Shown here: piece after piece, positions 5,039 to 14,226 of the stretch | How positions within the stretch are numbered: the first letter of the stretch is position 1 | Layout: the number at the start of each line of letters is the position of its first letter | Assembly (NCBI GenBank): GCA_963739305.1 | Contig: CAVTZU010000010.1 | Span: forward strand, 1-64,000 | DNA length: 64,000 nt | Direction: 5' to 3' | From: Candidatus Bathyarchaeota archaeon | Lineage (GTDB): Archaea > Thermoproteota > Bathyarchaeia > Bathyarchaeales > Bathycorpusculaceae | Notes under the pieces: generated by a model | Database searches by the model: none | What the model was told of the DNA's origin: nothing | What the model saw: only the letters and a program-made list of their open reading frames with translations | Position numbers and translations under genes: made by a program

Positions 5039-5134
5039 GGGCTCGTAGTCTAGTCGGTAGGACGTCGCCCTCACTCGGCGAATATGCTGGAGGATGCGGC
5101 GAAGATCCCCGGTTCGAGCCCGGGCGGGCCCACC
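5039..5134 (+). tRNA. tRNA-Val(CAC) with 21-nt intron (5075-5095, position 36/37 by BHB geometry)
   Basis: GGGCTCGTAGTCTAGTCGGTAGGACGTCGCCCTCAC[TCGGCGAATATGCTGGAGGAT]GCGGCGAAGATCCCCGGTTCGAGCCCGGGCGGGCCCACC; CCTC/GAGG helix with AC|T and AT|G bulges. Confidence 0.93.
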
Positions 5135-5460
5135 TTTCAAACAAAAAAAAGCATTAATGTAAATTGAGAGGAGAATGGCAGCGGGAGAAAGGAGATGGAC
5201 AAAAGCAGCTCATTCTCCTCTAAGCGCACGCGTACGCTCGTACGAGATATTTATGCAATAACTTGTTATTAAAGTTGACGTTAATCCCCGTCATCTCCAG
5301 GTATTCTTTGTATTCATTAAACGAACGCACAGAAAGTGATGTAAATGAAACTTTTCTCTGCATAACAAGAAGTGTTAGGAAGTTGAGTATTTGCGTTGAA
5401 CGCGTAGACAAAAAGGTTTATTACATATCAAGATTCAAGATACATGAAGCGGTGACAAGG

Positions 5461-5829
5461 GTGCAAATAAACATAGGCTCCTGGAAGCTCAACGAGTACG
5501 ACTCACACGGGCCAGAAACTGAAGATCCAACCTGTGGCGAATGCGGGAAAACATATCACAAACCGATCCTCGCAACCGTCGCAAGCTCTGGAAACGTGCA
5601 CACGTACCAAGCTTGTCCTCACTGCATGACCAAAGTTCATGCTGCAGACCCTCCGAAAAGCGAGGAGATCAAAGCCGCAATCCTCTCAAAACAGCCAGCC
5701 GAAAAAGCACTTCTGCTGGAAGGCAAATGCGGCCACTTCTTCGGGTACTTGAACAAACGCCCGAAAGGGACGTCGGTCCCCGAACGCTGCTTAACCTGCG
5801 AAAAAATGGTAGATTGCCTTTACGGATAG
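5461..5829 (+). CDS. Double zinc-finger small protein
   Basis: CGEC...CPHC plus CGHFFGYL...CLTC...C; BRE/TATA (aaaaaggtttatta ~5410-5423) and GGTGA before GTG 5461; ORF-track start 5263 looks over-extended. Confidence 0.75.
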   Translation: MQINIGSWKLNEYDSHGPETEDPTCGECGKTYHKPILATVASSGNVHTYQACPHCMTKVHAADPPKSEEIKAAILSKQPAEKALLLEGKCGHFFGYLNKRPKGTSVPERCLTCEKMVDCLYG

Positions 5830-6069
5830 TGAATTCCCCGAAAGCTTCCAGAGCCTACCACAAACAGAAAAATCGAAGCTTCCATAGAACAACCCTTTTG
5901 ACTCCAGTCTAAGCATCTTTTTGAGAAAGCGGAAAGAAATTGATTCTTTCAAAAGAAGTGGCAAATAGGAGTCTCCATTAGAGGACAACGATCAACCTCT
6001 GAAGCAAACAAATTCCCGGGATCAAAGTTTCGGGGTCTGTCCGTCATAAGTTCTTCATCTTTATAATCC

Positions 6070-6092
6070 GACTGGGACGGCGACATCATCCC
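6070..6092 (+). repeat. Integrase-associated direct repeat, copy 1 (left arm of a hairpin spanning 6066-6121)
   Basis: GACTGGGACGGCGACATCATCCC; further copies at 8645 and 12640. Confidence 0.85.
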
Positions 6093-6121
6093 CCGTAGAT
6101 AATACAGCATCCCAGTCAGAT

Positions 6122-6996
6122 ATGAACATTGTCAACACAATGCTCTGGATGAAGAAAAACGCATACGAGGAAACCACCATACGCAAAGTAGCCAAACTCC
6201 TCAGACACTTGCAACGAAACTGCAACACCAAAGACCCAGAAACCGTAAAACTCTATATCGCCAAAAAGACCACCAGCAACGGACACAAAGAAAACTTGGT
6301 AGAAGCCTACGCCATTCACCTGAGATCACAGAACTTAACATGGGAACAACCCTTCTACCAAAGATACGACAAGAAACGCAGACCACCCAAAGAAGAACTA
6401 ATCGACTTCTTAATCAACCACGCAAGACTGGAAATGGCACTGAAATTATCCATGACCAAAGACCTAGGCGAAAGACCCATAGAACTCACATGGCTAACAC
6501 TAAAAGACATAGACCTATCAACAGGCATAGTAAGCATCACAGGAGCAAAACACACCGTCGGAAGAGAAGGAAAACTCAAGACCAAGAACCCTAGATCTCT
6601 TAAGAATCTACATCAAAAAGAAGAAACTCAACCCAAACAGCCGACTCTTCAACATGAACTCAGACAGCCTATCCAACAATTACCGACACACACGAAACAG
6701 AATCGCCGAAGAATACGATATGCCCGAACTCAAACAAATCCAACTTTACGACTTCCGACGCTTCAAAGCATCCAAAGCCTACCACCTAACAAATAACTTA
6801 CTCTTGGTCAAACAACTCTTGGGACACAAAACACCCGAAACAAAACAGAACGATACATCAGTCTATTTGACGAAAAAAACATAACATGGATACCTGTGAT
6901 ATGCGAGAACCAAGCCGAAATCAAACAAGCAATCAAAGACGACTGCATCCTGTATGCCAAGCAAAAGGAATAACATACTTCAAAAAACCCGCGTAA
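6122..6996 (+). pseudogene. Tyrosine recombinase/site-specific integrase, interrupted by about 3 frameshifts (~6587, ~6843, ~6951)
   Basis: Joined frames give GERPIEL (R), GAKH (K), YDFRR (HxxR variant), LLGHK, TERYISL (Y), ending ITYFKKPA*; strongly A/C-rich strand. Confidence 0.88.
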
Positions 6997-7509
6997 TGAA
7001 CACCATCTTCTCTTCCCATACTCTTGGAACTATTCTCTCAAGCATGCGGAATTTGATTAAAAACCAAACGCGGATAGAAAATGCAAGCTTTACCAGACAC
7101 ACTCACCAGACGACCTACAATCCGCGTCGCACGTTACAGAACGATACGCCAAAAATTGATATCTCAAGACATAGCACAGCCATGGAAAGAACGAGATCCA
7201 AAGCTAGGAGTGAAAATCAAAAAATAACACTTTGAGGAAGTTATGAGCGAGCATTATCTAGATGTGAGAAAATGCGGATGATCGAGCGCGCCAAGTTGAA
7301 GAAGTAGCATAAGAATACTGGTGAAGCCCAAGCGCGCGCATAACCCAGCAGCCGCGTTGTACACGAGCCAAAGCTACTACAAGAAACAACTTTATCCATA
7401 GTTGATATCTCTTCTATCGAGCGCGCACGCTAAAGGATTGACGAAAAGAGAGAAAAAGCACTCTCAGTTCACGAAAGTCAGTTGTCGAGTGCATATCGTC
7501 TGTGTGGTT

Positions 7510-8184
7510 CTACCTTCCGATGTGACTTATCAGAATTATCGCGTCAAAGATGTCTACGACGCCGTCACCGTTGATGTCAGCGTAGGGGTTCCAATTTGGA
7601 GCGCTTTGAGTACTGCCAAAGGCTTTTGCCAGGATTAGTGCATCGTAAATGTCCACGACACTGTCTCCGTTCAAGTCGCCTATCAGTCTTATCTGAACAC
7701 TCCCGTCCTCACTGTTTGATTGCAGGGTTTGCCCTGAAGGGTCAGCAACTACAAGACTATCTATATGCAAAGAACTCTGACAGTATCTGTTGTACAACTT
7801 GAAAGTCAAATCTAGTATAGTAACTGGCGAGACAGTGCTCATGGGAATACCGAAGGTCACGTTAGTGCTCATGAAACCGTTTCCTGACTGGAAGTACGTA
7901 GGACTAGGCAAGTTTGCATCTGGCAGAAAAGATGCTCCTACTATTGCTATTTGTGTCCCGTTAAAAATTAGTGTCATCTGCACAGAACCGCAATTGCTTA
8001 CGTTTTGAATAGTTATGTTTATGTGAAATCTCATCCCTTGTGAAGGAGAATTGTTCACTGTGCTGGAGGGCTGGACACTTATCAGCGGTGTAAAGGTGAT
8101 AGCAGAGCTTCCATGAACCACCAAGACACTCAGTGCCGCAACAATGACGCAAGTCAACAAGACAGCTTTTTGAATTTTCCTCAT
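7510..8184 (-). CDS. Secreted protein with cohesin-like domain and C-terminal dockerin-like duplicated Ca-binding repeat
   Basis: Signal peptide; beta-rich middle; GDLNGDSVVDIYD...ADINGDGVVDIFD. Confidence 0.85.
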   Translation of the reverse strand: MRKIQKAVLLTCVIVAALSVLVVHGSSAITFTPLISVQPSSTVNNSPSQGMRFHINITIQNVSNCGSVQMTLIFNGTQIAIVGASFLPDANLPSPTYFQSGNGFMSTNVTFGIPMSTVSPVTILDLTFKLYNRYCQSSLHIDSLVVADPSGQTLQSNSEDGSVQIRLIGDLNGDSVVDIYDALILAKAFGSTQSAPNWNPYADINGDGVVDIFDAIILISHIGR

Positions 8185-8538
8185 CGTATCACCCCCTCCT
8201 TTCTCTCGAAGAACAAGGACTAGTTATTGGTCGAATGGACTATTAGCTTTTGTGAAAAAAAGTTCTAGAATCAGTAATGTTGGTTGTAATGTCCTGCGCG
8301 GGCGACTTTACCCCAAAGCACGTGACATTCGACAATTCACCACGCCCATCTCCTCGGAGACATAAGCCTTCCCCTCATTTGAAATTCAAGAGGAAAAGCA
8401 ATCTCCCATCACATACGGAAGCGAAATATGCTCTCTCTGAAAATACTTCGATTAGCTTCCTATTAGTCTCCTTTTCAGAAAGGCATATTGTCTCCTCGTC
8501 AAAATAACGACGAAGAATGAATGGATGTGTGATGAGAG

Positions 8539-8760
8539 ATGATAAACGAAAATACGAAACAAGAAACACAGGGTAAAACGGAGAAAGACACCATCAACCA
8601 AGACAAGAAACAAACACAATCAATAGAATTAGTAAGCCCTAAGGCTGGGACGGCGACATCATCCCCCTACATTGTAGCAGCGTCCCAGACAGATAAAATC
8701 TTTGCGACCACGCGGTACATGCGGAAAGCGCATGCTAAGTGGAAAACTCATCTTCGATGA
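8539..8760 (+). pseudogene. Truncated N-terminal fragment of a second integrase homolog
   Basis: AGTATSSPYIVAASQTDKIFATTRYMRK aligns with the in-frame upstream extension of the 6122 integrase TGTATSSPVDNTASQSDMNIVNTMLWMKK. Confidence 0.6.
8645..8688 (+). repeat. Integrase-associated repeat, copy 2, with inverted arms
   Basis: CTGGGACGGCGACATCATCCCCC...CGTCCCAG; same 44-nt arm-to-arm span as copy 1. Confidence 0.85.
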
Positions 8761-11700
8761 GAATCGTAAGACCCTTTCGACTTTCCTTTTGACGCTCGAT
8801 TCTTTTCTGACATGATCAGCATGATGAGGATGACGATCAATCCGACGCCTAGGGTTAAGGCTATAGACGCAACTGCCCACGTAGGCATCTCTAGACTGTT
8901 CTGCACAGGTACCGTTTGATCGTTGATAGGGGTGTACCAACTGCTCCATCCGCTTGAAAGCCATGTTACGTCAGATGGCCCGACGACGTCGTTTATCGCA
9001 GTCAAATTGTACACGTTGTCTTCAACCTTTGAAATCGTGAATCTCCGGGAGCCCTGTGTGTCGAAGGAGTAGGACTTTTCCCATCTATCGTGCTGAGTCG
9101 ACCACTCCATGGGTTCACTGGAAGTTTGCAATTGCCAACCTTGAGTGCTCTGGTTGAACACATACGTATCTAAGAACAACGTGCCGTTCGGTCCCTTGAG
9201 CAACATGTTGTCGTATTCATAGACCGCTATGAACCAGATTTGTTCGCTGCTTCCAACTGATGCCGTCTGTTGAGACGTCCCCCCTCCGATGATCTTTATT
9301 CTGTCCCATACGCAGGCGACCACGTTGCTCCGGAATTTGGTCAGACCATATTTGCCGTCCATGATGCCTGACGCCGTGAAGTAGTATTTGCCCACTGCAT
9401 CTTTGATCAGTGTGTCGTTGATATAGAGCATGCCTGTGAAAGATGAATTGTCAAACTCGTAGAAGCTGCCATTCCACGTGAGGACAGCTGGAGATCCAAC
9501 GTCAATTCTGTCGTCGGCGACTTTCAGCACTATGTTAACACGATCCCAAATGGTCGTCAAGTTTGAAGCTTTCTGAATGAATGATTTGATGTGATACGTC
9601 TGGCCGTCCTTCACATAGAGAAAATCGACACCGTCGACGCCAAAAGTCTTCTTCACAGGATTCGTTGACGTGAAGTTGAAGTTCGCCCATCCTGTGCTGT
9701 TAACGTCCACTAAGCCTACGTTTGTTACGCTTATCTTCCCAGAAACAGCATCCGTGCAGTTGTGCGCCCATTCAGCGTGGAAGCTGTAGTACTGGGTTAC
9801 GCCCAGGTCGGAGCGTTGTGGCGTCTGCATCGAAGCCAAAGAATCATCGATCGTGATGTCTCTCACCGTGACGCGCACCACTATGAGCCACTGTGGGACC
9901 GATCCATTGGCATTTATCGTGAGCTCGGCCACGTAGAGGTTGGGATCACAACCGCTCATGTTAATGAGCAAGGTGATCACTGTGCTGTTACCCGCACCTA
10001 TCGTGCCATTACTAAGGGTGACCGATTTCAACCAGGCGCCATCTTTGCCGAGACTTGCATTCCACGCCAAAGGTTCTTGTCCGATGTTGAAAAGGGTCAC
10101 GTTGTAACTCGCGGTTTGGCCTCTGTACATGACGCCCATGTCGACGTCGCTTGGGTTGAGGGTTGCCGTACCGTTGCTGACGGACAACTGTGGAAGTCTG
10201 TTGACGAAGCTGCTGCTGTTCTTGACTGCCCAGTTGTTAGCTTTGTCAACCGCTGAGACGTTGAAGAAGAGCGTTGCGTTTCCAGGCTGAGCAGGCATCA
10301 AGGCGGTGTAGTTGTCGTCTGTAATCTTTGTCATGTCCGCTTTCCACACGGTACCGTTGAACAAGTAGGAGAGGACGACCTCGTTCACGCCGCTAGCATT
10401 TGCTGGTTCAGTTACCACTGCCCAAACTAGGATAGTCTGGTTGTTGTCTGGCGGCGAAGGAGCTGACCCCGTTTGTCCGATGGACGGCGGTTTCTTGTCG
10501 CCCACGCTGTAGGGTCCAGCTAGCGGATACTTGGTCGAGTTCAGTTCCACCGCGAATTCAGCGTGCACGCTGACGGTGAAGCTCACCAGCGTGCCGTATG
10601 GCTTCGACGGTATTGTTCCGTTCAGCGTGTCATCCGCGACTGTCATGGTGATGTTCTGATGCTGAGAATCGTAGTCTACCAGGAGGAAAGCCGCTGCGAT
10701 TTTCACTGACCTCAGTACCTTGGCGGTCACTGTCACGTTGGTGTCGTATTCGATGTTGGACACGTTTCCAGGGTTCTGCACAACGCTTTGTATCAAAAAC
10801 AATGGATACCTGTCCCGTGTTTGTGAAGACAAGTTGTACGGTTTGTCGCAGATTCCGTCTGGCAACGCGAGGCCACAAGGAGTACCTTCATTCTGATTGA
10901 CGCCAGAATACACGTCGATGCTGCTGAAGTCGCTCCAATAATTGCCTCCGCCCGTCTTGCTGGTAAGGTTGTAAGGATAACCGTCGTCCCAGGCGTTGGC
11001 ACCTTCGTCGACGGCTTGAGGCCCGTTGCCGTTGTTGATGAACCTGTTCTGATAGACTTTGTCGTCCGAGGTGGCCAAGTGACAGTAGAGTCCCAGTCCA
11101 TTATTTCTTATAGTGTTGTTTCTTACTAGATTGTTTTCACCCGAGGCTACGTTGATGCCGTACTCGAGGCTTGAGCCCACGTAATTATCTTCAATTATAG
11201 AATTGCTACCGTCAAGGAAAATGCCGTCTTGATCGTTCGAGGTGATGGTGTTGTTTGTCACCACGTTGTTCGAACCGGAAATGCGCACTCCGTCCTTGAG
11301 GTTTGCTTGGATGACGTTGCCCGTAACGGTGTTTCCCGAACCGTACACGGTGATTCCGTCTCCGAGCCCGTTGGTCACGTTGTTGTTTGCTACAACGCTG
11401 TTCGCGGCTAGAACGTGAATTCCCGCCCCGTACTGCGTGGAACTGATGGTGAGACTGTAGATCTGAGCCCTGTCAGATGTCACCGTGACTCCGTCTGAAT
11501 AGCTTCCAGAAGCTAGAAAATCAAGGTTTATGACCGTGGTCTGCACGTCTTCTCCGACGAGCCAGATGTTCTTCCAGATTGTGATCTGCTCGAAGTAGGT
11601 TCTCTGTTTGGAGACAAACACAACGTCGCCTGGATTTGCTGCGTTGATTCCTTCTTGTATCGTTGCAAAGTCTCTTGGAATGACTATGCCTTGTCTCACT

Positions 11701-12413
11701 TCGAGGTCATCCAAGTAAACCGTGGGCAAAATCGTTGATCCTGACGTCTCGTTGAGTAATATTCTTTTGATCTGACTGGTTTGTCCAGTGAAAGGCGCGC
11801 CTGTCTCTTCCAAGTGGTCGTCTATATGTATGTCGTAAGTGTTTTGGGGAATATTCATTATCATCTTGATTACATACCATCGATTAGGAATGAATGGACT
11901 CCGCAAAGTAACGAAAGAGTTGGCCTGTCCACGATACCCGATCTCACCGTTCGCAACCATTATGTCCGAACCCTTGAAGTTGCCATCATCAACGTACACA
12001 TCGAAAACCGCGTTGCCGCTGACTGAATCGTTAAGCATTATCGAAAATGAGACTACAAGAGTGCCATTCTGCGGCGTAAAACTCACGTAGGGCCGAGGAG
12101 AATCCGATGTTGCATTGCCTACCAGTTTTGCAGATTTCCCTCCGGCGCCATGAAACGTAGTGTTGTCAATCACAAAACTGCCCGCGCTCGGATTGCTCAC
12201 GGTCCAGTTTTGCGGGACTGCGCCGGTTGTTTCATTGTCGAAGGCTTGAAAGAGAACTGTCCGGTTCGAAGGGGAATTCGGTGAGACTTTTGCAGTTGTC
12301 GCCGAAATCACGCTGGAGGTTGCTGCGGAGACTGTTCCAATAGCGGAGTCGGCTGATACCAACATCAAAGCAACTAGAAAACTAATGAGCAATGTTTTGA
12401 GGCGTGATTTCAA
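8748..12413 (-). CDS. Large cell-surface protein: signal peptide, lectin-like N-domain, parallel beta-helix (NosD/CASH-like) repeats, Ig-like domains, C-terminal TM anchor
   Basis: IPRDFATIQEGINAA, repeated GIxxxGSNNxxxNN, GGGNYWSD, C-terminal hydrophobic helix plus basic tail. Confidence 0.85.
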   Translation of the reverse strand: MKSRLKTLLISFLVALMLVSADSAIGTVSAATSSVISATTAKVSPNSPSNRTVLFQAFDNETTGAVPQNWTVSNPSAGSFVIDNTTFHGAGGKSAKLVGNATSDSPRPYVSFTPQNGTLVVSFSIMLNDSVSGNAVFDVYVDDGNFKGSDIMVANGEIGYRGQANSFVTLRSPFIPNRWYVIKMIMNIPQNTYDIHIDDHLEETGAPFTGQTSQIKRILLNETSGSTILPTVYLDDLEVRQGIVIPRDFATIQEGINAANPGDVVFVSKQRTYFEQITIWKNIWLVGEDVQTTVINLDFLASGSYSDGVTVTSDRAQIYSLTISSTQYGAGIHVLAANSVVANNNVTNGLGDGITVYGSGNTVTGNVIQANLKDGVRISGSNNVVTNNTITSNDQDGIFLDGSNSIIEDNYVGSSLEYGINVASGENNLVRNNTIRNNGLGLYCHLATSDDKVYQNRFINNGNGPQAVDEGANAWDDGYPYNLTSKTGGGNYWSDFSSIDVYSGVNQNEGTPCGLALPDGICDKPYNLSSQTRDRYPLFLIQSVVQNPGNVSNIEYDTNVTVTAKVLRSVKIAAAFLLVDYDSQHQNITMTVADDTLNGTIPSKPYGTLVSFTVSVHAEFAVELNSTKYPLAGPYSVGDKKPPSIGQTGSAPSPPDNNQTILVWAVVTEPANASGVNEVVLSYLFNGTVWKADMTKITDDNYTALMPAQPGNATLFFNVSAVDKANNWAVKNSSSFVNRLPQLSVSNGTATLNPSDVDMGVMYRGQTASYNVTLFNIGQEPLAWNASLGKDGAWLKSVTLSNGTIGAGNSTVITLLINMSGCDPNLYVAELTINANGSVPQWLIVVRVTVRDITIDDSLASMQTPQRSDLGVTQYYSFHAEWAHNCTDAVSGKISVTNVGLVDVNSTGWANFNFTSTNPVKKTFGVDGVDFLYVKDGQTYHIKSFIQKASNLTTIWDRVNIVLKVADDRIDVGSPAVLTWNGSFYEFDNSSFTGMLYINDTLIKDAVGKYYFTASGIMDGKYGLTKFRSNVVACVWDRIKIIGGGTSQQTASVGSSEQIWFIAVYEYDNMLLKGPNGTLFLDTYVFNQSTQGWQLQTSSEPMEWSTQHDRWEKSYSFDTQGSRRFTISKVEDNVYNLTAINDVVGPSDVTWLSSGWSSWYTPINDQTVPVQNSLEMPTWAVASIALTLGVGLIVILIMLIMSEKNRASKGKSKGSYDSHRR

Positions 12414-12639
12414 AACCTATTTTCCTCTATTACCATTCATATTCTATGGTATGTTAAGTTAAGACTTGCGAAATCTTCTTCTAGAAGTATATTCCACTTC
12501 GGAGGCTCGCTTGGGCAGCAAACAATGGAAATTCGCTTCTGGGTGTTTTCTTTGCTTCTTCACCGCAGTGTCTTTGGGGAATGTCAGTTGGGTAGGCGGT
12601 AATTACCGTAGTTTCATACTCAGTTCAAGTCGCGCGCGC

Positions 12640-12662
12640 GACTGGGACGGCAACATCATCCC
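12640..12662 (+). repeat. Integrase-associated repeat, copy 3, overlapping the 16-bp palindrome AGTCGCGCGCGCGACT (12628-12643)
   Basis: GACTGGGACGGCAACATCATCCC, 22/23 identical to copy 1. Confidence 0.85.
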
Positions 12663-12740
12663 ACAAACAAGAGCAACTTCGCCAACTCTAATATTTCGCG
12701 ATGAACCGAACATGGTCTTGACCCGAAACTGTACGAATCC

Positions 12741-13055
12741 TCACGTGTTTTTTCGAAGTCCCTTAATTGTTCCAGATATTCTCAAAACATGAACGGCAAC
12801 CGATTTGCCGCCAATTTTCGTCATCGATGCTAATGCTGTTCGAACCATTTCGAGATTCGTGTGTCCAGCACGCAACACTGCAGATTTCTTTTCACTATCA
12901 AAGCTGATTAAGCTCATACTTACGATGCTGCATCCATGCTCACCATATAGCTTTGCAACGCTGTCCCAGACTGCATCGACAAATTCGTTCGCAGAACACA
13001 TCTCGGCGGAATCAATCGTCAAAGCCAAATAGCGACGCTTCACTTTTTTCAGCAA
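12741..13055 (-). CDS. rnp2: RNase P protein component 2 (Pop5/Rpp14)
   Basis: KRRYLAL...LYGEHG...RISGTIKGL; follows Rpp30; likely TTG start at 13055. Confidence 0.9.
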   Translation of the reverse strand: MLKKVKRRYLALTIDSAEMCSANEFVDAVWDSVAKLYGEHGCSIVSMSLISFDSEKKSAVLRAGHTNLEMVRTALASMTKIGGKSVAVHVLRISGTIKGLRKNT

Positions 13056-13783
13056 TCCTTGCCTCTCCGAATGACCCTTATTCCCGGAGCAACAAATCTC
13101 CAATCCAACTTTCCCCGGTTTCTCGTCACCAACGCGGCGGAGTTCTTGGAAACCGCATCAATCCCAGCCGAGTCACACAACCCCGCCAAAGAGCCCAGAC
13201 ACGCCAGTTCCAACGGTTTCCGCATCAAAAGCTCTTCGGACACTCCGCTTGATGCAACTATTGGAACGTGAAAATCGGTGGCAGTCTCAACTTCTCTCTT
13301 AAGCATCGATAATAGCCTTATTCTAGGCGTTTTCTCCAGAACCAGAAGGGGTTTAAGGTCGATTTCAAGAGATGCCATGCAGTTTGATGCTAACTCGGCT
13401 TCGGCCGCGTCAAAAAACGCCTTCCGAAAATCTGGCTGCGGAAAGTTGAGAAGGTCAACGCGACGATCTTTGGCCGCTTGCCTGGCAACAGCCTTGGAAA
13501 AGCACATCACGGCAACAAGCTCGAAACCGCGCCTAACCTTCCTCAATTCTTTCAATAACTCCTCAGGAGTTCGAGGAACAAGATCTACGCGGGCCGCAAA
13601 GTCCAAGCCGACTTCCGTGCAGATTTCCCTTATCCGCTTGACCTGTTGCTCACTAGTCCGCAATGGAAAAGGCGTCGCAATCAACCCATATCCAAGCGCC
13701 GAAGCCTTCTTGACCAAACGAGTGAACTTCGAAACGTCATCAGTATCTGCACATAGGTGCAAGTCGGCATAAGTTCTTCTCAT
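13049..13783 (-). CDS. rnp3: RNase P protein component 3 (Rpp30)
   Basis: YADLHL, RQAAKDRRVDLL, ASSG...MRKPLEL; ATGA overlap with the upstream gene. Confidence 0.92.
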   Translation of the reverse strand: MRRTYADLHLCADTDDVSKFTRLVKKASALGYGLIATPFPLRTSEQQVKRIREICTEVGLDFAARVDLVPRTPEELLKELRKVRRGFELVAVMCFSKAVARQAAKDRRVDLLNFPQPDFRKAFFDAAEAELASNCMASLEIDLKPLLVLEKTPRIRLLSMLKREVETATDFHVPIVASSGVSEELLMRKPLELACLGSLAGLCDSAGIDAVSKNSAALVTRNRGKLDWRFVAPGIRVIRRGKDC

Positions 13784-14226
13784 GGCAGCAACCCAAATTC
13801 CCTGCAAACACCCACAACTTCATCGGTTCCGTGCTTCTTAAAGTGCACTCGCACATGAATAGGATCAATTGAACCGAGCTTGAGTTCATTGAGATAGGCA
13901 GACTGCTTGTCCAATCGAACGTAAAGATTTCCTTTTTCCACGTGCTCCGTTATCTCGTCAGCCAAGGATTCTTTATCCATAAAGCTCAGGCTCGTGCACA
14001 ACTTTGCGAACACACTCTGAACCAACTTCTTGTCCTTGATCCTTGCCTCAAAAAGAACTATAGGATTGCCATGATGACCCGTTAAATTCGTCTTTTCGAA
14101 AGACACGTTGTCAACGGTTTCATTCGGCAGCACGTTTCGCGCAGCGATCAATACCTTGTCTGGATCCTCCGTTGCATGAGCAAAAACCCTAAGGTCAATG
14201 TAGCCAACTGGAGCCTTGGAAGACAA
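13780..14226 (-). CDS. RNA-binding protein (DUF54/PF01877-type)
   Basis: FAHATEDPDKV, GHHGNPI, YVRLDKQ; likely TTG start at 14226. Confidence 0.88.
   Translation of the reverse strand: MSSKAPVGYIDLRVFAHATEDPDKVLIAARNVLPNETVDNVSFEKTNLTGHHGNPIVLFEARIKDKKLVQSVFAKLCTSLSFMDKESLADEITEHVEKGNLYVRLDKQSAYLNELKLGSIDPIHVRVHFKKHGTDEVVGVCREFGLLP

Follow-up and report, generated by a model that had tools for sequence, protein, structure and literature searches.

Archaeal integrases are described as inserting their elements into transfer RNA (tRNA) genes, and less often into protein-coding genes or between genes. The same kinds of target (tRNA, intergenic, protein genes) are given in PMC6563490. In the SSV-type (suicidal, type I) integrases of SSV1/SSV2, pTN3 and pT26-2, the attachment site of the element, attP, lies inside the open reading frame (ORF) of the integrase gene, int (PMC8371274 and PMC7253208), and PMC8371274 ties the known suicidal integrases to the Pfam family PF16795 and to a single origin. 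Here, we analyze a 64,000-nucleotide (nt) stretch of DNA from a Candidatus Bathyarchaeota archaeon (contig CAVTZU010000010.1, hereafter the window), in which a 21-nt sequence recurs three times around two small integrative elements. We put at about 85% the probability that these repeats are attachment (att) sites and record two site-specific integrations in succession, both at the 5′ end of a C/D-box small RNA (sRNA) gene. As in SSV-type systems, att appears to lie within the int ORF, antiparallel to a small stable-RNA gene, with a split into Int(N) and Int(C), a rebuilt target and tandem decayed copies. The family of the window differs from them in that its target is a C/D-box sRNA gene and not a tRNA gene, its integrases belong to PF00589 and not PF16795, the split removes only 7-36 residues, and att lies outside the ORF in 23 of 67 members.

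The nearest parallel is integration of the pTN3 type, which uses the 5′ half of a tRNA gene and for which PMC8371274 reports a comparable promoter situation. In both cases att covers the 5′ part of an RNA gene and the rebuilt gene is, or here would be, transcribed from element DNA; the present case differs in RNA class and in integrase family, and its promoter role is read from sequence position only. Bacterial prophages and islands are said, in work by Williams from 2002, to integrate into the genes for transfer-messenger RNA (tmRNA) and small RNAs, where likewise a conserved small noncoding RNA gene serves as the host site (attB) and is restored by element sequence. Here, by contrast, the host is archaeal, the gene specifies a putative methylation guide RNA, its 5′ end is targeted, and att is inside the integrase ORF.

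The repeat, CTGGGACGGCRACATCATCCC, lies in direct orientation on the plus strand at 6072-6092, 8645-8665 and 12642-12662. Copies 1 and 2 are identical (G) and copy 3 differs at one base (A for G). Chance matches were found in 0 of 100 shuffles, and a search of the whole genome (2,317,032 bases in 36 contigs; G000) at up to two mismatches returned these three copies only, with 0 matches to a reversed control pattern. An earlier interpretation, made from the letters of the window without database searches (the sequence-only reading), had placed the three copies at these positions and proposed that they form a non-tRNA att site within the 5′ region of an integrase gene, acting at the nucleic-acid level. 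That proposal holds up well, as does its account of where each copy sits. Copy 1 reads GTATSSP, in frame, 30 nt upstream of the integrase ATG at 6122. Copy 2 falls in an N-terminal integrase fragment, an ATG-started ORF of 73 codons (8539-8760) in which the codons that follow the core (PYIVAASQTDKIFATTRYMRK) are diverged relatives of those that follow copy 1 (VDNTASQSDMNIVNTMLWMKK). Copy 3 lies directly against a perfect 16-bp CG palindrome, AGTCGCGCGCGCGACT, and is followed by the core genes for Pop5 and Rpp30. What the sequence-only reading missed is that a conserved host gene for a C/D-box sRNA, 63 nt long and on the minus strand, starts with this repeat: its first 21 nt, which comprise the 5′ stem, C box and D′ guide, are the reverse complement of the 21-mer. 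The arrangement is therefore the ordinary one of site-specific integration, with a left site (attL), a hybrid site and a right site (attR). The window has a single tRNA gene, for tRNA-Val, at 5039-5134, and it is unrelated to the repeat. The features of the target and its surroundings are as follows.

6032-6094, minus strand: full-length 63-nt C/D-box sRNA gene (conservation, box layout, weak Rfam matches).
6072-6092, plus strand: core copy 1, attL of element A, at the junction of the sRNA body with the catalytic integrase part, IntC (repeat match).
8645-8665, plus strand: core copy 2, hybrid site in which attR of element A is fused to attL of element B (repeat match).
12642-12662, plus strand: core copy 3, which is attR of element B and consists of 21-24 nt from the sRNA 5′ end, orphaned on the native promoter flank (empty-site contig).
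12663-12740, minus strand: native flank upstream of the sRNA gene; a TATA-like box, TAATATTT, occupies 12689-12696 (27-34 nt from the core).
12741-13103, minus strand: Pop5, RNase P subunit (PF01900, E 1.5e-20).
13049-13807, minus strand: Rpp30, RNase P subunit (PF01876, E 8.3e-26).
5263-5829, plus strand: host flanking gene for a 188-amino-acid (aa) Cys-rich protein (tblastn: beside the sRNA in 21 fetched relatives' loci).

Sixty related genomes (61 with that of the window) were compared, using window positions 5950-6110 as the BLAST query. The 63-nt block (query positions 83-145) is present in 37 of the 60 relatives, which represent several families of the order; identities are 77-98% and all matches have E <= 1.6e-7. 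Twenty genomes have Pop5 and the sRNA on one fetched locus. In ten of these (G001, G002, G014, G015, G017, G018, G024, G029, G035, G042) the site is empty: Pop5 and, 50-230 nt beyond its end, the sRNA share one strand, and the convergent gene for the 188-aa protein comes next. In the ten others (that of the window, G003, G004, G005, G008, G013, G027, G028, G031, G036) the site is occupied, with 0.74-9.9 kilobases (kb) between Pop5 and the sRNA, and integrase genes or remnants were seen at the sRNA side in nine, all but G036. The window itself has 6.6 kb between the sRNA body and its native promoter. G008, from the same genus, has one 8.1-kb element between two cores, and its outer flank on the Pop5 side matches the empty site of G001; an IntC remnant that tblastn had indicated beyond the Pop5-proximal core of G008 was rejected on account of that match. 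By sequence, then, the target is a host gene used as attB.

Contig joints were examined in Logan contigs from peat metagenomes, which cover the occupied form. One joint, in X2, runs from 6065 to 12640, skipping 6574 nt and joining the sRNA to the copy-3 flank; another, in X1, runs from 6094 to 12689 with 26 variant flank letters between. With short sides of 23 nt, these joints speak at most for strain polymorphism and not for excision, and no clear circle joint was seen among the matches listed. Both joints are of the empty-site kind.

On the 3′ side of the sRNA, the 188-aa protein, with CxxC...CxxC motifs, is a convergent neighbor conserved across family and order; it matched no Pfam family. 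The nearby tRNA-Val(CAC) gene is 96 nt long and probably contains an intron. Although tRNA-Val(CAC) is listed in PMC8371274 among frequent archaeal integration targets, here the sRNA gene close by is the integration site instead.

The integrase frame of the window is broken near 6586, by one extra A, and near 6830, where the run is A4 and A5 is needed; its pieces match no Pfam family because the frame is broken. The window IntC is 61-63% identical to an intact 290-aa homologue, P0001, which is a PF00589 match, and the intact homologues of G008 (290 aa, E 1.9e-10) and G016 (281 aa, E 2.6e-15) match PF00589 as well. All 16 members tested match this family, with a best E of 2.6e-15, and none matches PF16795 even at E <= 10. 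Residues R118, K143, Y209-x-x-R212, H235 and Y244, invariant in the alignment, correspond to the tyrosine-recombinase positions R..K..(H/Y)xxR..H..Y. The best relative of solved structure is XerA (4a8e, E 1.3e-3); the SSV1 integrase chains 4dks and 3vcf are reached at E 0.31. A database search at E <= 1e-5 gave 427 relatives, of which the named ones are Bathyarchaeia integrases.

The integrase is associated with the core. Six of the six hits with at least 46% identity to the G008 protein in the 61 genomes adjoin the sRNA core (G000, G008, G011, G016, G028, G031), and paralogues at 41% identity or less are located elsewhere. The genome of the window has at least ten further paralogues or fragments of 21-32% identity (on C13, C15, C24, C25, C26, C27, C29 and C9), some of them clustered (C15:3567-5835); these presumably have other att sites. 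Metagenomes yielded 249 confirmed integrase loci, of which the best 80 were analyzed. In 67 of the 80 the core shares the strand of the integrase and precedes its conserved domain by 44-158 nt; the remaining 13 have insufficient flank. The antisense remainder of the sRNA stands just upstream of the core in 63 of the 65 loci with at least 50 nt of flank. Two or three cores, always in direct orientation, are present in 17 metagenome loci, where they bound elements of 2.4-9.5 kb. Across the 67 loci the core is identical in its nucleotides and the flanking codons vary. The null hypothesis of the sequence-only reading, in which the repeat is kept only as amino acids, cargo does not vary and junctions are absent, failed on all three counts, and the DNA-level reading therefore stands.

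How might integration proceed? We propose that the target is the first 21-23 nt of the sRNA gene, which in unoccupied genomes follows Rpp30-Pop5, and that attP copies the 5′ stem, C box and D′ guide of the sRNA, with flanks that imitate those of the host. The dyad within the core, CTGGGACG / GCGACAT / CATCCCCC, resembles two recombinase-binding arms around a 7-bp overlap, which may indicate the cleavage positions; the only variable core base falls in the GCGACAT spacer. In elements of the window type, codons ~10-45 of int would contain attP, in antisense to the sRNA, and integration would split int, leaving a short N-terminal part, IntN, at one end and the catalytic IntC at the other. Because att covers the 5′ end of the sRNA, integration would also sever the sRNA body from its own promoter. 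The complete sRNA would be rebuilt with the element-borne first 21-23 nt, and a TATA-like box 27-31 nt upstream, carried by the element on the antisense strand of the integrase 5′ region, probably replaces the promoter. Such mimicry would be consistent with an A/T peak found 27-31 nt beyond the core in both host empty-site flanks (n=10) and element flanks (n=59), as in host TTAAAAGGGATTTC versus element CTAAAAGGGCTTTGG. Elements also keep TCCC(AG) at ~16-21 nt beyond the core, on the integrase side.

The relation of att to the integrase frame varies within the family. In 44 of the 67 loci, including the window, the GTATSSP frame is open and in phase into the integrase over 15-33 codons (type A); in 23 of 67, a stop or frame change lies between core and integrase (type B). 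A type B clade of ~14 has its own GGTGA/AGGA-like stretch and ATG (MNQKIVQELLKQLQ...) ~72 nt past the core. Distal sites of the window, G008, G031, G016, G028 and several metagenome elements show a GGAGG/GGGAGA-like stretch and an ATG that open an IntN peptide, M.EEK....LL(C/S)PKA, of 7-36 residues, entering the core in the GTATSSP frame. As judged from these frames, type A is the SSV-type layout, with att inside the integrase ORF and the gene split on integration. Split and unsplit layouts coexist at 58-84% protein identity within the family, and a quick IQ-TREE tree implies at least five switches between them, some of which may be decay, type B rows then being decayed type A.

A rival view is that the gene stays whole, with att functionally upstream of the integrase, a start at the internal Met (MNIVNVMLWM...), and IntN acting as a DNA-level attP arm or upstream ORF. 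Several observations favor it and count against a split. IntC keeps the internal Met, which is conserved in most members, and the 290-aa forms match PF00589 over the whole catalytic domain; in the 23 type B loci a stop or frameshift precedes an integrase with its own stretch resembling a ribosome-binding site and its own ATG; and IntN varies in length from 7 to ~36 residues. The arm TTACTTTGCCCTAAGG, which "codes" for LLCPKA, is conserved in those 23 loci too, where it cannot belong to Int; the arm must therefore be kept, at least in part, as DNA, and translation from the IntN ATG is putative. Against the integration reading as a whole, no free circular attP form was seen, and unsplit junctions occur only in tandem arrays, with two apparent exceptions (L063 and L089). 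Set against a whole gene are the 44 of 67 loci in which the core frame continues into Int with neither a stop nor a change of phase, the members that have no internal Met at that place (FFNIVN, NINIAN), the distal ATG that follows a GGAGG/GGGAGA-like stretch in phase with the core, and the position of the integrated IntC, which is preceded only by the antisense sRNA gene and no evident promoter. We consider a whole gene unlikely, if worth keeping in view, and retain the split for type A.

Some loci and searches bear on the layout in other ways. Five type B loci (L115, L122, L127, L128, L119) have a single in-frame stop (TGA by eye) between the core ORF and the integrase ATG (...RALVKER*KMNQ...), and in L124 a Gly codon in place of that stop gives one continuous ORF. 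Database proteins of 321-348 aa were considered as unsplit integrases and rejected: their extra N-termini are the antisense sRNA body (GSVRHKFFI), the result of gene calls through attL. The two exceptional loci, L063 and L089, have either no upstream ORF or one in another phase, and the sRNA remainder is missing upstream of the integrase-proximal core; both look like tandem or recombinant junctions. A scan of viral contigs with the intact integrase found no relative, and metagenome contigs with two cores show no terminal repeats.

The layout of the target gene is as follows. Read on the minus strand from 6094 to 6032, its 5′ half consists of GGGGG, the C box AUGAUGU, a 12-nt D′ guide CGCCGUCCCAGU and the D′ box CGGA, and its 3′ half of the spacer UUAUAAAG, the C′ box AUGAAGA, a 12-nt D guide ACUUAUGACGGA, the D box CAGA and CCCC. 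Box order, 12-nt spacers and the size of 63 nt, within the range of 50-70 nt, are shared with the archaeal C/D-box sRNA plan. In an alignment of 29 copies (D box readable in 28), the C box AUGAUG is present in 27, the D′ box is CUGA in 19, CGGA in 6 and CCGA in 4, and the C′ box is (A)UGA(A/G)GA. Both guide spacers are exactly 12 nt, the GGGG/CCCC termini are invariant, and so is the D′ guide, nGCCGUCCCAG. The second (D) guide differs in more distant metagenome lineages (L052, L054, L057, L085, L109, L113, L126; for example antisense ggggtctgtccatctcaattcttcatc), with C box and P-loop guide identical. The D guide thus appears to be turning over while the half of the sRNA that serves as att is frozen.

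Under permissive settings, Rfam gave weak matches at 6032-6094 on the minus strand, overlapping copy 1, and every structured match was to a C/D-box family. The gene has the C/D′/C′/D layout with two guides in common with snR67, sR60 and sR5, and its D′ guide and CGGA box align with those of snR67 (GUCGCCGUCCCAGU-CGGA opposite GUUGUCGCCCCAAG-CGGA). According to PMC11121408, snR67 guides yeast Gm2619, equivalent to E. coli Gm2251. The D′ guide can form 10 bp, one of them G-U, with the P-loop of the genome's own large-subunit (LSU) ribosomal RNA (rRNA) (CUGGGGCGGC; GCUGGGGCGGCA), and the N+5 rule places methylation on the second G of the P-loop GGGG, at LSU position 2375 (G000:C13:12034), the equivalent of E. 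coli G2251. We regard the P-loop target as a reasoned prediction. The gene differs from these known RNAs in its sub-threshold Rfam scores, its CAGA D box and the target of the second guide, which is predicted to lie near LSU helix 93 and not at yeast U2724. A target in the decoding centre of the small-subunit (SSU) rRNA, suggested by the SNORD43 alignment, was rejected, with only 6 bp pairing.

One alternative is that the 63-nt block is no guide RNA gene and belongs instead to the conserved cis elements that may follow Pop5, for instance terminators or regulatory sequences, its use as attB being incidental. Four observations weigh on this side and against an sRNA. Runs recorded as RNA contain none with the locus. 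All Rfam matches fall below the gathering score (bits/gathering: snR67 22.5/55, SNORD43 23.6/45, sR60 10.9/50, sR5 9.9/40). In place of the canonical CUGA, 27 of 28 copies have CAGA as their D box. Finally, the guide-target pairing is weak alone, as-good shuffled guides numbering 48 of 500 for D′ and 23-43 of 500 for D; in a first rRNA scan, allowing Watson-Crick and G-U pairs, shuffled guides often equaled the score. Several points count against a cis element: the box order, two exact 12-nt spacers, GGGG/CCCC ends and length of 63 nt all fit the C/D sRNA plan, the D-guide segment varies by lineage while the boxes are fixed, the D′ guide aligns with that of snR67 and puts N+5 on a universally methylated P-loop G, and a TATA-like box stands 27-31 nt upstream. 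We thus think this alternative improbable and hold with good but not complete confidence that the gene is a C/D-box sRNA, with expression and function predicted from its sequence.

Between the sRNA body and its native promoter, the window holds two elements, A and B, with these parts.

6093-6970, plus strand: IntC of element A, the catalytic part, with the internal ATG at 6122 (three-frame translations).
7510-8184, minus strand: cargo gene of element A; its 224-aa product bears a dockerin domain at the C terminus (PF00404, E 1.3e-11).
8539-8644, plus strand: IntN of element A, ATG-started, 35 codons, in frame into the core (homology to the IntN of the G008 element).
8666-8757, plus strand: IntC remnant of element B, 92 nt, the first ~30 codons (PYIVAASQTDKIFATTRYMRK...), aligning with the codons downstream of copy 1.
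8748-12413, minus strand: cargo of element B, a 1221-aa surface-type protein with beta-helix/NosD and immunoglobulin (Ig)-like domains (Pfam).
12628-12643, no strand: perfect 16-bp palindrome AGTCGCGCGCGCGACT, occupying the place of the arm TTACTTTGCCCTAAGG in other elements.

The IntN of element A is homologous to that of the G008 element (ETQGKTE..INQD..QTQS..L.SPKA), and the remnant of element B aligns with remnants found directly at the sRNA in G005, G027 and G003. Element B is probably the older, with element A entering the sRNA-proximal site later, because B-type remnants stand directly at the sRNA in those three genomes and core 3 differs from the mutually identical cores 1 and 2; the order does not follow from topology alone. 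Both elements are decayed, each retaining one intact surface-protein gene. Two points sit less easily with this account of the window: the inner flank of copy 3 is the CG palindrome, with no similarity to IntN or the arm, and both integrase frameshifts are changes in homopolymer length that could be assembly errors. At 6578-6586, related contigs are one base shorter.

The DNA that element A shares with other loci is confined to the integrase and the IntN region, the IntN DNA being common to L012, L061, L065, L082 and L088. Its dockerin gene has a homologue in one other element only, L088, and apart from L088 its DNA is unique among 120 loci. Homologues of the beta-helix protein occur in or beside elements of L085, G011 and G008. 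In the region 8214-8760, metagenome contigs pile up to a summed depth of 229 in X1 versus ~25 at the neighboring cargo, and a segment of ~100 bp within it (8374-8479) is replaced by different sequences across contigs. The region, upstream of IntN, is conserved yet modular and is possibly the integrase promoter or an origin.

Element content was counted in 21 bounded element sequences. Nineteen carry the integrase and five share a protein of ~110 aa. Eleven encode a Cys-rich protein of 325-368 aa with the motifs VEHIV.SVP, W.PHFH.LGF and GGTAWYQLNH (L012:6833-7849, which is the G008 copy; L054, L061, L062, L065, L084, L085, L088, L090, L113, L126), a gene that neither element of the window has kept. 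The protein had no match in Pfam or PHROG, and its AlphaFold model has a mean pLDDT (predicted local distance difference test score) of 50. Its ESM Atlas neighbors carry Rep_1/IS91-type families, and HUH (HFH) and Tyr motifs were read by eye. As a lead only, it may be a HUH rolling-circle initiator, possibly of an undescribed replication initiator (Rep) family of Bathyarchaeia elements. A 297-aa ORF in the G016 element, which is at least 9 kb long, has weak matches to PHROG major head proteins (L014:7061-7954; E 1.8e-6 and 6.6e-5); it is possible that some members are small proviruses or capsid-bearing satellites. Overall, the family consists of small integrative elements of Bathyarchaeia (2.4-9.5 kb) with a tyrosine integrase, often a putative HUH Rep, orphan ORFs and variable cargo.

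These contents bear on the suggestion, made in the sequence-only reading, of an integron-like or self-splitting integrase array that allows tandem accretion or shuffling of surface-protein modules. An integron-like platform, in which a resident integrase captures and reorders surface-protein cassettes, would account for three direct sites separating two surface-protein genes, both antisense to the integrase (7510-8184 and 8748-12413, minus strand), and for related elements that differ in cargo. It is nonetheless highly improbable: the integrase is absent from the ten empty sites and arrives with each element, bounded units elsewhere bring their own integrase (19 of 21) and a Rep-like gene (11 of 21), each site reproduces the start of a host sRNA gene and is not structured in the manner of attC, and the integrase of the window is frameshifted. 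A stationary integrase and structured attC sites, as in integrons, are thus not found. Of the suggestion, an att site inside the integrase ORF and the accretion of two elements with different genes survive; the integron-like character and cassette shuffling do not. The cargo had been described as a cohesin/dockerin gene and a 1221-aa beta-helix protein: the dockerin and the beta-helix protein are confirmed, the latter by its Beta_helix, NosD and Ig-like domains, and no cohesin domain is found at E <= 0.01. The ~90 nt of diverged integrase-like coding sequence after copy 2 might suggest that this copy and copy 3 arose by duplication of the integrase 5′ region, then decayed, and have no att role. 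This is hardly credible and is refuted by the comparison of empty with occupied sites. Neither side of copy 3 resembles the integrase, the copy stands on the native sRNA promoter flank next to Pop5, identity stops exactly at the 5′ segment of the sRNA, and the same two-ended structure bounds 17 metagenome loci and four relatives' genomes.

The mechanism that emerges is classical tyrosine-recombinase integration into a stable-RNA gene, with an SSV-type twist. What is new is the class of target, the integrase lineage in which the split appears, and the presence of split and unsplit layouts in one family. The 2021 review of archaeal tyrosine recombinases (PMC8371274) has no occurrence of sRNA or snoRNA, and PMC7253208 reports only tRNA targets, though its supplementary site tables may hold others. 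In the papers searched, work on Bathyarchaeia viruses and proviruses included, we found no C/D-box sRNA att site; integration-site supplements may hold non-tRNA RNA targets.

Taken jointly, the data may be read further, although we advance this only tentatively and at somewhat less than even odds. A large and probably rolling-circle family of small Bathyarchaeia elements would have evolved a suicidal integrase independently of SSV, pTN3 and pT26-2, with at least five switches of layout; its attP would be the captured promoter and 5′ part of the sRNA gene that guides the universally conserved P-loop 2′-O-methylation, and after insertion the host's only copy of that guide would depend for its transcription on element DNA that is also integrase coding sequence. 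If this is true, guide RNA genes would be a new class of integration target, and the expression of a core ribosome-maturation factor would be tied to a mobile element. If the reading of the repeats as att sites in an sRNA gene holds, methylation guide RNAs would form a third class of stable-RNA target. That reading would also offer a simple route to Bathyarchaeia mobile elements that tRNA-based pipelines miss, and the origin of the self-destroying integrase layout would be directly testable in a family that has both layouts. In these archaea, the locus would be a recurrent entry point for surface-protein genes such as those for the dockerin and beta-helix proteins.

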